Origin: an uncultured Pelagibacteraceae bacterium
Lineage (GTDB): Bacteria; Pseudomonadota; Alphaproteobacteria; Pelagibacterales; Pelagibacteraceae
NCBI GenBank assembly: GCA_902592715.1
Contig: CACJFS010000005.1
Coordinates: 10,489-74,488, forward strand
Direction of reading: 5' to 3'
DNA length: 64,000 nucleotides
Made by a program: the position numbers and the translations under genes. The notes beneath the pieces were generated by a model. The model was not told the DNA's origin. It worked only from the letters and a program-made list of their open reading frames with translations, and did not search any database. Below are positions 11,022 to 30,339 of this stretch, one piece after another; the stretch's first letter is position 1; each line of letters starts with the position of its first letter.

Positions 11022-11879
11022 ATGAGGGCAATAATTTTAAATGCCACAGCATGGATGATTGTTCCTGTAATGGATGCTTTGGCAAAGTATTTAAGCTCTT
11101 CAATGGATGTTTTACAAATAACTTGGGCTAGATATTTTTTTACTGTTGTTTTTACATTATTAATAATGTTTTTTTTTAAAAGAAAATCTTTTGTATGGAG
11201 TAAAAAACCAACTCTACAATTATTAAGAGGATTAATTTTTGTATTTTCTACTTATTTATTTTTTTATGCAATATCTGAAATTTCCTTGCCTAAAGCACTT
11301 ACTCTAGCATTTGTTGCACCTATTTGTGTAACCGCCATGTCCCCATTTTTTTTAAATGAAAAGGTTGGCATTAGAAGATGGACTGCAGTTTCTATTGGGT
11401 TTATAGGAACTTTAGTAGTAATAAGACCGGGTTTTATTGAGATAAATTTAGCTACTTTGGCAGCTTTAGGTAATGGAATTTGTTATGGATTTTATCTAAT
11501 TATTACCAGAAAATTAAGTAAATCTGATAACTCTCTATTAACCTTATTATTTGCCGGCACGGTAGGGACTATAGTTATGTCCTTCTTTATGCCTAACGTC
11601 TGGATTAACCCATCCTCAAATCAGTGGGTTATGATGGCTTTAATAGGTCTTGTGGCTGCAGTAGCACATTTATTTATTATTTTATCATTAAAATATGCTG
11701 ATGCATCCAAACTTGCCCCTCTTGGTTATACTGAAATAATTACTAATATTATTCTTAGTTACTATATTTTTAATGAATTACCTGATAATTGGACTTATTT
11801 AGGCCTATTTATTATTGTTTTATGTGGTTTTTATATTTCTAAAAGAGAATATTATCTTTCAAAGAATATATATAGGTAA
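11022..11879 (+). CDS. DMT/EamA family transporter
   Basis: About 10 TM helices, EKVG..RW, GF.G...IRPG, ADASKLAP..Y. Confidence 0.88.
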   Translation: MRAIILNATAWMIVPVMDALAKYLSSSMDVLQITWARYFFTVVFTLLIMFFFKRKSFVWSKKPTLQLLRGLIFVFSTYLFFYAISEISLPKALTLAFVAPICVTAMSPFFLNEKVGIRRWTAVSIGFIGTLVVIRPGFIEINLATLAALGNGICYGFYLIITRKLSKSDNSLLTLLFAGTVGTIVMSFFMPNVWINPSSNQWVMMALIGLVAAVAHLFIILSLKYADASKLAPLGYTEIITNIILSYYIFNELPDNWTYLGLFIIVLCGFYISKREYYLSKNIYR

Positions 11880-12114
11880 TAACTACTGTCATATATACTA
11901 ATGTAATGGTTTAAAAATTAATTGTAAACTATTGTATTTATTATTTTTATTAGTTTTAAGTTTTATAAAAATTATTTTAATGATAAATAAATTATCAAGA
12001 TTTATTAGAATAAAAATAAATATATAACTAAATTACTTAGCCAGATCTAAAGCTAGATTAGATAGATAATTTTAATATCTATAAAAGACTATTTTACTTG
12101 ATTTTATATAAAAG

Positions 12115-12122
12115 GGGTAGGG
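12115..12122 (+). other. KOPS-like octamer GGGTAGGG pointing rightward
   Basis: Exact GGGNAGGG match in non-coding, very AT-rich DNA. Confidence 0.55.
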
Positions 12123-12160
12123 ATCAAAAACAAATTATTCATTTAAATATCCAAATCTCT

Positions 12161-12190
12161 TTGATTTACATGAATCTTTCAACATAAGCT
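12161..12190 (+). promoter_or_regulatory. Putative sigma70 promoter for the candidate rod-like RNA
   Basis: TTGATT (12161-66), N18, TAAGCT (12185-90); would start about 12197, where the fold begins. Confidence 0.3.
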
Positions 12191-12196
12191 CATAAA

Positions 12197-12395
12197 CTTG
12201 AGTAAAAAATTAGCTTCACTATTTACTGAAATGCAAAAATATTATTAAGCTTTGCAAATTTCGAATATACCTTTTAATCGCCTATAAGGGGGTCTATTTT
12301 AAGTATTAGTTAATTTATAGTGCAACTTATAGGTGATTTATAAAAATATGAGCTATATATTGTATTTCTGCATAAAAGAGTTGATATTACTTGCT
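12197..12395 (+). ncRNA. Candidate rod-shaped ncRNA (6S RNA-like architecture)
   Basis: Nested helices 12199-205/12387-393, 12209-216/12378-385, 12231-242/12362-373, 12248-252/12350-354 and 12276-288/12326-338, with internal bubbles; mismatches are mostly G-U on the + strand. Confidence 0.4.
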
Positions 12396-12396
12396 A

Positions 12397-12672
12397 TTAA
12401 AGCAAAATTCCTTCTGAAATAAGTAGTTTTCTTTTTTTTTTAATACCTCCCAAACCAGAATAACCGCCTAATGACCCATTTGACCTTATAACTCTATGGC
12501 ATGGAATCTTTGGAGCATATGGATTTTTACCTATTGCATTTGCCACAGCTCTAACTGCTTTTGGCCTATTTATAGCTTTTGCTACATCAGAGTAAGACCT
12601 AACTTGTCCCCTAGGGATTGTTTTGAGGTATTTCCAAACTTTAACTTGAAATTTAGTTCCTTTTAGAATCAT
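12397..12672 (-). CDS. ogt: Methylated-DNA-protein-cysteine methyltransferase (MGMT), C-terminal domain only
   Basis: GTKFQ.KVW, IP.GQV.SY, RAVANA, active-site PCHRV; true start is ATG 12672 (the track's extension runs through the ncRNA). Confidence 0.92.
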   Translation of the reverse strand: MILKGTKFQVKVWKYLKTIPRGQVRSYSDVAKAINRPKAVRAVANAIGKNPYAPKIPCHRVIRSNGSLGGYSGLGGIKKKRKLLISEGILL

Positions 12673-12725
12673 AAAAAAAACCCTGTTTCCTTGCACCTTT
12701 TCAGGTACAAAGAACAGTAGTTTTT
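12673..12725 (-). terminator. Rho-independent terminator hairpin at the 3' end of the structured RNA
   Basis: CTGTTCTTTGTACCT-GAAA-AGGTGCAAGGAAACAG followed by GG and T8. Confidence 0.75.
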
Positions 12726-12862
12726 GGCACGTCGTTTTATGCGCTACCGCCATGCCGTTCACTCTACAATTTTAGCGCTACTCTGTAGAGCTTTCTGCCC
12801 TCTGGGCTTGAACCTCTCGGTTTTTCCCCAGCTGGTCAGTTAAGAGTTGCCTCTTAATTCAT
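12673..12862 (-). ncRNA. Highly structured ~190-nt RNA upstream of ogt (probably the marine psRNA2-type SAR11 small RNA; recalled, not verified)
   Basis: GC-rich island with five helical domains, GNRA loops GCAA, GAGA and GAAA, twin loops sharing GUAGCGC...UAAAA, and a terminal U8. Confidence 0.8.
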
Positions 12863-12964
12863 TTAGTACAATATCAGATAGGGTAGGTTGTATGTATCAC
12901 TTTATCGTTGAATATACTGAGTTTTTAACAGGGATGAATAGTGGGGATAACTTAATCTAAAGCT

Positions 12965-13438
12965 TTAAGTAAACCATCTAAAACCCTCATACATTGCAAT
13001 TCCATAAATAGAGTGTCTAGTAAAAAACATAATTGACGTTTTAATGGGTATTCCAGTCTTATTTGCAAACACTCCTTGTCCTGTAAATGGTAAAAATATC
13101 AATAATGGAGCTAAAGTTGTAAGAGCTCCAAATATAAAGCCTGAATAATAACTCATTTTTAGACCTATAATAAAAAAACAAAAATAATAAATAACGGACC
13201 AACAAATTGATACATAATAGTGAAAAACCCATCCAAGTAAGACCTCATATTTAAAATTAGGCATTTTGGCGATATTTGGGTTATAAAAAGTAGCATTTTT
13301 AAGCATATAATAAGTCCATCTTCCAACAATTCCCCAAGACGGTTCTGGAATACCGATTAATTTTAGTAAATAACCAAGAATATCAAGAATTATGCATGAA
13401 AATGTCCCAGCAACTAAAATACTAATAATATCTATCAA
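12965..13438 (-). CDS. DUF2938-like membrane protein
   Basis: W..VGRW, LGW..HY, P.TG.G, H..YG motifs; TTG start with upstream GAGG. Confidence 0.72.
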   Translation of the reverse strand: MIDIISILVAGTFSCIILDILGYLLKLIGIPEPSWGIVGRWTYYMLKNATFYNPNIAKMPNFKYEVLLGWVFHYYVSICWSVIYYFCFFIIGLKMSYYSGFIFGALTTLAPLLIFLPFTGQGVFANKTGIPIKTSIMFFTRHSIYGIAMYEGFRWFT

Positions 13439-13444
13439 TTAACC

Positions 13445-13609
13445 TCAAAACATTAATAAAAATAGAAGAACAAAAATACTTATAAAAAATATGCCAAAAA
13501 TAATCATTAAAATACGATTTTTTGTTTGTTCTTTTAATTTTGGCCAGTAATTCATAATTAGAAATGTTCCAATAACTACAACAAGACCGATTAATACATA
13601 TTTAGGCAT
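13445..13609 (-). CDS. Small two-TM hypothetical protein, 54 aa (not in the ORF track)
   Basis: MPKYVLIGLVVVIGTFLIMNYWPKLKEQTKNRILMIIFGIFFISIFVLLFLLMF*; AAAGGA RBS; stop 6 nt before the DUF2938 start. Confidence 0.7.
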   Translation of the reverse strand: MPKYVLIGLVVVIGTFLIMNYWPKLKEQTKNRILMIIFGIFFISIFVLLFLLMF

Positions 13610-13632
13610 TAAGATCCTTTTACATTAAATGC

Positions 13633-13661
13633 TTGACTTGTAAAATGTGTTATATTATAAT
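13633..13661 (+). promoter_or_regulatory. Near-consensus sigma70 promoter of the recombinase
   Basis: TTGACT (13633-38), N17, TATAAT (13656-61). Confidence 0.75.
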
Positions 13662-13690
13662 TTCCGATAATTAATGGTTATCGGTAATTA
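13658..13690. other. loxP/dif-like tyrosine recombinase core site, 13-7-13
   Basis: TAATTTCCGATAA-TTAATGG-TTATCGGTAATTA; arms are a 12/13 inverted match with an asymmetric spacer; ends 2 nt before the recombinase ATG. Confidence 0.72.
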
Positions 13691-13692
13691 AT

Positions 13693-14610
13693 ATGAAAAA
13701 TATTATTAGTGATATTAAATCACTTGAACTAGAAACAATTAAAAACTTAAAAAACTCTAAAGCAAAAAATACAGTTCGAGCATACGAGTCAGATTTTAAG
13801 GACTTTGCTTTGTTTTGTCTGAAAAATGGACTTAATTCACTTCCAACTGAACCTAAGATATTATCTTTATATTTAACTCACCTATCAAAAAAAAGTAAAT
13901 TTAGTACATTAAAAAGAAGAATAGCTTCAATCAAAGTTGTGCATAAAATGAAAGGTTATTATTTGGATTCAAAACATCCTATAATAATGGAAAATCTGTT
14001 AGGTATAAAACGGGTAAATGGATCATATCAGAAATCAAAAAAACCTATATTAATCAATAATTTAAAGCTTATAATTAAAGCTATAGATGATAATGAAAAG
14101 AAAGAATTTAAACGAATAAGGAATAAATCTCTAATACTATTAGGGTTTTCTGGGGGGTTTAGGAGATCTGAATTAGTTAATATTGAGTATGATGACCTAG
14201 AATTTGTAAATGAGGGTCTTAAAATTTTTATTAAAAGATCTAAAACAGATCAATCAGGCGAAGGTAGTCTAAAAGCAATACCCTACTTCGAAAATTTAGA
14301 ATTTTGTCCAGTAATAAAACTTAAAGACTGGATTAATTTTAATAATATTAAAATAGGAAAAATTTTTGAAATTTCGGATAAGTCAGTCTCACTCATAATT
14401 AAAAAATATGCTTTTCTGGCAGGTTTAGATCCAACAAAATATGGTGGACATAGTTTAAGATCAGGATTTGCGACATCTGCTGCAGAAGCTGGTGCTGAAG
14501 AAAGGAACATTATGGCTATGACAGGCCATAAAACAACACAAATGGTAAGAAGATATATTAATGAGGCAAATTTATTTAAAAATAACGCATTAAATAAAAT
14601 TAAGTTTTAA
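13693..14610 (+). CDS. Cre-like tyrosine site-specific recombinase
   Basis: Catalytic set intact: GFRRSEL (R), RSKTDQ (K), GHSLRSG (HxxR), TGH (H), RRY (Y); Cre-like N-domain (NTVRAY, LPTEP...YLTHL, STLKRRIASI..HK..G). Confidence 0.93.
   Translation: MKNIISDIKSLELETIKNLKNSKAKNTVRAYESDFKDFALFCLKNGLNSLPTEPKILSLYLTHLSKKSKFSTLKRRIASIKVVHKMKGYYLDSKHPIIMENLLGIKRVNGSYQKSKKPILINNLKLIIKAIDDNEKKEFKRIRNKSLILLGFSGGFRRSELVNIEYDDLEFVNEGLKIFIKRSKTDQSGEGSLKAIPYFENLEFCPVIKLKDWINFNNIKIGKIFEISDKSVSLIIKKYAFLAGLDPTKYGGHSLRSGFATSAAEAGAEERNIMAMTGHKTTQMVRRYINEANLFKNNALNKIKF

Positions 14611-30262: not shown

Positions 30263-30339
<77 letters not shown>

Follow-up and report, generated by a model that had tools for sequence, protein, structure and literature searches.

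The DNA analyzed here is a stretch of 64,000 nt (the window, by which the whole of that stretch is meant). On its minus strand, a structured, GC-rich RNA ends exactly where a gene for an O6-alkylguanine-DNA alkyltransferase (ogt, also called MGMT) begins. The question raised by this arrangement is whether the RNA is a leader that governs ogt or a gene in its own right, and by what kind of action its product might serve the cell. SAR11, the group with which the RNA is associated, outnumbers every other bacterial group in the sea. Abundant noncoding RNAs have been recovered from marine metatranscriptomes, according to PMC8049014.

Family identity and fold

The first-pass annotation had suspected a small RNA of the kind found in marine metatranscriptomes, and it had proposed both a comparison with the IMES families of Rfam and a covariation analysis of SAR11 homologues. 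In the cmscan comparison, positions 12724-12864 (minus strand) matched IMES-2 (RF02035), for which the gathering score is 54.7, at 162 bits and E = 1.1e-42, and the alignment covered the full length of the model (positions 1-141 of 141). The suspicion was thus borne out; because the element is a member of a known Rfam family, it is not novel and founds no new class. The gathering score was also exceeded by divergent copies (69-156 bits), and all variant classes tested passed it. The window's genome (1.08 Mb, 78.5% complete) contains a single copy. The IMES-2 motif was reportedly described by Weinberg, Perreault, Meyer and Breaker in Nature in 2009; Shi, Tyson and DeLong, in the same journal and year, are said to have delineated putative sRNA groups, some of which overlap IMES motifs. 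The retrospective PMC8049014 cites this work. In these 2009 papers, IMES-2 reportedly figures among the most abundant noncoding transcripts of surface-ocean metatranscriptomes. No report on the function of IMES-2 was found in the literature searched.

The minimum free energy (MFE) of 12660-12870 (minus strand) was -73.3 kcal/mol, compared to -47.3 +/- 4.3 kcal/mol for shuffled sequences (z = -6.0); none of 200 shuffles was as good. The MFE fold recovers four hairpins (P1-P4) and the hairpin of a terminator. These hairpins, as well as the U8 tract of the terminator, had been drawn in the first-pass annotation, and all of them are present on the minus strand. High G+C content in an AT-rich genome had also been remarked upon, and the motif indeed has 48% G+C, compared to 23-36% in the 2-kb intervals that surround it.

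Covariation was examined in two alignments. The first (A1) comprised 136 distinct homologues. Standard pairs occupied 89.5% of its cells, but only 35-44% when the 3' partners were slid; changes on both sides were found at 44 of the 62 pairs, and the observed values were reached in 0 of 500 shuffles. The second (A2) comprised 64 distinct true IMES-2 copies from metagenome contigs that were chosen by a non-GCGC core in the P3 loop alone, and 94.2% of its cells were paired. Covariation was found in every helix among the 136 distinct homologues, and, along with the z-score of -6.0, it upholds the earlier claim of a structured noncoding RNA under selection.

P1 (12840-12857) is a 7-bp hairpin of near-invariant sequence; 100% of its cells were paired in A1, with both-side changes at just 2 of the 7 pairs. 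P2 (12795-12839) is a long stem that is interrupted by an internal loop and closed by a GNRA tetraloop (GAGA). Its two helices were paired in 92.6% and 90.1% of the A1 cells, and both-side changes occurred at 9 pairs. In P3 (12761-12791), which has 8 bp and a 15-nt loop, both-side changes were found at all 8 pairs (95.5% of cells paired, A1). P4 (12726-12756) has nine positions, including a conserved G.A mismatch, and a 13-nt loop; both-side changes were found at 5 pairs in A1 and 7 in A2. Sequence hardly varies in the P1 stem and at the base of P2, whereas P3 covaries freely. Three GNRA loops had been claimed at the outset. The GCAA loop of P1 is kept throughout the homologues; that of P2 is of the GNRA type in the main group (GAGA, GCAA, GAAA or GCGA) but not in the divergent copies of another genus (g5, see below); and the GAAA loop of the terminator did not hold up as a feature of the family, as it varies between lineages.

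A further helix connects the loops of P3 and P4. The strand GCGCUA in the P3 loop (12773-12778, RNA positions 87-92) is complementary to UAGCGC in the P4 loop (12741-12746, RNA positions 119-124), and this 6-bp helix was paired in 95.8% of cells in A1, with both-side changes at 4 of the 6 pairs, and in 99% of cells in A2. To avoid bias, the P4 loop was read only after the A2 copies had been chosen on P3. The P3/P4 cores in A2 were GUAC/GUAC (37 copies), GUGC/GCAC (9 copies), GAAC/GUUC (9 copies, one of which had the flanking A-U pair mismatched), GUUC/GAAC (5 copies), GAGC/GCUC (1 copy), and GUGC/GCAA, which has one end mismatch (3 copies). A1 contributes the core pairs GCGC/GCGC, UCGC/GCGA and GCAC/GUGC. 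At the two variable kissing pairs, there were 0 unpaired cells in 65 sequences. Eight complementary core states are thus represented, which requires at least seven compensatory events; this covariation shows that a 6-bp helix joins the P3 loop to the P4 loop. In most of the eight states, the core is not a palindrome and the P3 sequence is unlike that of P4, which rules out self-self kissing as well as the binding of a common factor to both loops. As a pattern, the covariation would look alike whether the loops paired within a single molecule or across two. The pseudoknot is absent from the structure line of cmscan for IMES-2; Infernal drops pseudoknots. A mutual-information scan for further tertiary pairs beyond the known helices gave clade-correlated noise only. 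Taken together, the kissing helix and the two conserved GNRA tetraloops point to a compact, rigid three-dimensional fold.

The first-pass annotation had seen no likeness to a tRNA or to any riboswitch class that it could recognize, and no tRNA or Rfam riboswitch match was found at E <= 1. The possibility of a tRNA-like element was rejected as well: no tRNA model matched within 11800-13750 at E <= 1, and the topology differs. It was observed that a decamer in the P4 loop (GGUAGCGCAU, 12738-12747) equals the D-loop/D-stem 3' segment of the tRNA at 30266-30339, and that UA precedes both kissing strands, as in a tRNA D-arm. Because the tRNA model misses IMES-2, the identity of the decamers is probably a coincidence.

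Promoter module, terminator and genomic distribution

Just upstream of the core, where an extended -10-like element had been noted before, lies TG-n-TATTGT (TGATATTGT, 12868-12876, minus strand), which was read from the sequence and is the probable promoter of IMES-2. The element recurs: TGn and a TAnnnT-like hexamer are found at the same distance in most homologues. Two additional motifs on the same strand are conserved in the upstream regions. The promoter-proximal block, TCAAC-N6-AAAGTGATAC, occupies 12894-12911, and GTGAT is kept in 158-159 of the 159 distinct upstream regions. Ca. 70-85 nt upstream of the RNA, two abutting 9-mers (TTATCCCCA and CTATTCATC, 12933-12950) are near-invariant across the 159 distinct regions, with the consensus sequences TTATCCMCN and NWATTCACA; the composite 9-mer motif is unique in the window's genome. 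The conserved upstream module should bind a regulator. The 9-mers look like DnaA boxes, and perfect DnaA boxes in a complete relative showed no clustering and were fewer than in the control; the DnaA-box reading is offered as a lead only.

The 3' end is formed by an intrinsic terminator (12673-12720, minus strand) that consists of a bulged hairpin (12681-12720) and the U8 tract (12673-12680). The stability of the hairpin was -22 kcal/mol, and both-side changes were found at 16 of its 17 pairs in A1. It is present in all lineages, with a sequence that varies between them. A scan for consensus promoters and terminators called neither the extended -10 nor the bulged terminator. Terminator strength was also compared between ogt-linked and unlinked loci, a measure that is confounded by A-tract/U-tract pairing, which consumes the U-run.

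IMES-2 occurs in three unrelated neighborhoods. In the window's clade, it is accompanied by a recombinase gene and ogt. In g8, a second genus of the family, mnmA precedes it, and the gene that follows is convergent and belongs to an unknown family. In g5, a third, the divergent copy stands between a gene for an SNase-family nuclease and a convergent SRAP (abasic-site repair) gene; in locus L046, the two genes occupy 982-1425 and 1694-2326. The extended -10, the TCAAC block and the 9-mers accompany the RNA in all three contexts, and in g8 and g5 the upstream blocks overlap the stop codon of the preceding gene. That DNA-repair genes are neighbors in two separate contexts (SRAP in g5, ogt in the window's clade) may be chance.

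In searches with the Rfam model, 21 of 36 relatives sampled from the window's genus had an IMES-2 match. In a second draw, which was weighted to complete genomes, 21 of 77 same-genus genomes carried it. Among other genera of the family, all 3 genomes of g8 and 3 of the 4 of g5 had a match, the latter being divergent at 62-69 bits. There was no match in 60 genomes of the sister family, nor in any of 149 other families of the class. A pattern scan for P1-P2 matched at least 120 species-level genomes, and all 80 titles among the matches listed were Pelagibacter-type names; in the genomes sampled, IMES-2 is restricted to one family (f1) of the order. Carriage by phages was addressed with the same pattern, which had 0 matches in viral contigs. 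Every genome with a match had exactly one IMES-2. Many complete, single-contig genomes of the genus are devoid of it, and the RNA must therefore be dispensable. The promoter motifs that travel with the RNA, its own terminator and its presence as one copy per genome together argue that it is a stand-alone gene.

Other features of the locus were recorded. Downstream of ogt is a 517-bp, ORF-free, AT-rich gap (11880-12396); a gap of 450-530 bp is maintained at this position 3' of ogt across the genus, with blocks at ca. 12248-12388 and 11892-11977 that are 72-85% identical, and no Rfam match was found in 11880-12396 at E <= 1. A tyrosine recombinase (PF00589, 305-317 aa) is encoded at 13693-14610 (plus strand) in the window and at L002:1992-2945 in a related locus; for most loci of the genus, its transcription diverges from the IMES-2 side, and the RNA is thus usually its neighbor. 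A small membrane ORF (ca. 57-70 aa) that is conserved and has the motif GSIDGEIPAVWFLI was recorded in L017 (1200-1412, with the locus turned to make IMES-2 forward), L006 and L173. Its place is just upstream of IMES-2, but in L006 it separates IMES-2 from ogt. One genome devoid of IMES-2 has this ORF directly upstream of ogt; in the window, a DUF2938 gene (12965-13438) stands in its place. The cumulative GC skew peaks at ca. 12 kb and again at ca. 23 kb, fitting a terminus.

Possible modes of action

It is judged moderately probable that IMES-2 is a stand-alone, single-copy sRNA gene of the SAR11 type whose transcript, of ca. 190 nt, works in trans by virtue of its shape. Transcription would start at the conserved promoter region, made up of the extended -10 and the two upstream motifs, and would end at the intrinsic terminator. 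The 141-nt core, with its four hairpins, P3:P4 kissing and GNRA loops, would adopt the compact, rigid fold. The RNA most likely would serve a protein as its ligand or scaffold and would not engage in long antisense pairing. That the P1 stem and P2 base are invariant while P3 covaries freely hints at a partner that recognizes them specifically. No match to Hfq, ProQ or CsrA was found in the window's genome (78.5% complete), and a search of five near-complete IMES-2-bearing genomes for Hfq was likewise negative; it is from the invariant helices and the lack of Hfq that we infer a protein partner.

A compact fold with tertiary contacts would be no less suited to a ribozyme or to an RNA that binds a small molecule. 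A globular RNA that acts in trans as a small-molecule sensor, a sponge or a ribozyme, and that does not serve a protein, would be in keeping with the kissing helix, the two conserved GNRA loops, the conserved A-rich internal loops and joining regions, and the very high sequence conservation outside simple helices. However, no cleavage site, ligand or conserved metabolic neighborhood is evident, and the distribution is that of an accessory element; we regard this account as unlikely. A more elaborate version, in which the RNA is globular and binds a small molecule or is catalytic in trans while its synthesis is set by a factor (possibly DnaA) acting on the tandem 9-mers, is considered highly doubtful.

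A base-pairing sRNA, targeting mRNAs via a conserved loop or a single-stranded tail, would likewise be expected to have a stand-alone gene with a promoter and a terminator, and conserved, unpaired, A-rich segments are present. Nevertheless, the most conserved loop segments are occupied by the kissing helix, and the absence of Hfq and ProQ matches also speaks against such a role. Complementarity to the RNA elsewhere in the window's genome included no stretch longer than 13 nt; the best stretches (<= 13 nt) were AT-rich and at chance level. One GC-rich 12-mer complement reads, on the opposite strand, like a tRNA D-arm and is probably a look-alike in a tRNA gene and not a target. Action through base pairing with mRNAs appears quite improbable.

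With respect to the question posed at the outset, a cis-acting leader would be a riboswitch or attenuator that senses, e.g., an alkylated base and toggles the terminator at the ogt start codon. In the window, ogt (12397-12672, minus strand) codes for a 91-aa, single-domain O6-alkylguanine-DNA alkyltransferase (PF01035, E = 2.8e-33) whose translation contains the PCHR active-site motif (PCHRV). A 121-aa ORF with a GTG start (12397-12762), which overlaps the RNA, was rejected as a gene of its own: it is an in-frame extension of ogt, the Pfam domain takes up the 91-aa form from residue 7 onward, and the ATG of that shorter form is conserved. A leader would agree with the aptamer-like complexity of the fold and with the U8 tract, which runs right into the ATG at 12672. 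It would also agree with spacing: in 116 of 161 IMES-2 loci (from two collections that were not de-duplicated; 154 were distinct among 159 extracted 203-nt stretches), ogt starts 40-69 nt past the motif. The position upstream of MGMT given in the first-pass annotation is accurate for some lineages, ogt being directly downstream on the same strand in 118 of the 161 loci, but it does not apply to the family as a whole, because ogt is absent there in the other 43. In g5 and g8, moreover, the next gene is convergent. Conversely, ogt is kept (69-75% identity) in five complete same-genus genomes that have no IMES-2, where it immediately follows a GNAT-like ORF or a small membrane ORF. The terminator sequence varies by lineage, and no conserved anti-terminator pairing was seen on reading the sequences. 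The 43 loci without ogt and the retention of ogt in relatives without IMES-2 argue, at the level of synteny, that IMES-2 is an independent gene and not a dedicated ogt riboswitch; the leader hypothesis is accordingly given very little credence.

The least credible proposal is that the P3 loop of one molecule pairs with the P4 loop of another and that dimers or chains of IMES-2 are the active form: GCGC and GUAC, the cores seen most often, are palindromic and the covariation is compatible with one or two molecules alike, but GUGC/GCAC and GAAC/GUUC exclude P3:P3 or P4:P4 kissing, and the adjacent hairpins, which are of similar length and are joined by a 4-6-nt linker, appear well placed for intramolecular kissing.

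In the window's clade, a small fraction of transcripts reading through the terminator probably expresses the abutting ogt. Such read-through would be a by-product of gene packing, as opposed to ligand-controlled regulation, and ogt appears to be a promoterless gene that rides on whatever lies upstream. The function of IMES-2 should now be easier to test, given a dispensable gene that is not a switch, a kissing helix that locks the two 3' hairpins together and varies freely at its central pairs, a promoter module, and hosts without an Hfq match.

Comparison with known RNAs

Compared to the rest of the IMES-2 family, nothing sets the window's copy apart; it has the same four hairpins and conserved blocks, and the hosts are marine bacteria of the SAR11 type. 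To the description of the family, the present analysis adds a P3:P4 kissing helix backed by covariation, a conserved promoter module, and the optional linkage to ogt.

The aptamers of the lysine and purine riboswitches contain L2-L3 kissing loops. As in those RNAs, two neighboring hairpins of IMES-2 would be docked alongside each other through Watson-Crick pairs formed from loop to loop, and GNRA-type contacts would likewise add to a compact fold. In contrast to these kissing-loop aptamers, IMES-2 has no conserved downstream gene, no conserved expression platform was seen on reading the sequences, no closing helix surrounds P3 and P4, and no Rfam riboswitch model matches it at E <= 1.

6S RNA, an abundant sRNA that acts through its shape and is linked to RNA polymerase, has the shape of a rod with a central bubble. 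At E <= 1, the IMES-2 stretch showed no match to the 6S model (RF00013), and searches with this model were also negative for the window's genome and for five complete genomes from its genus. IMES-2 differs from 6S RNA in being composed of four hairpins, not a rod with a central bubble; like 6S RNA and other abundant, shape-acting sRNAs, it stands alone, is structured, and probably works by being bound as opposed to antisense pairing.
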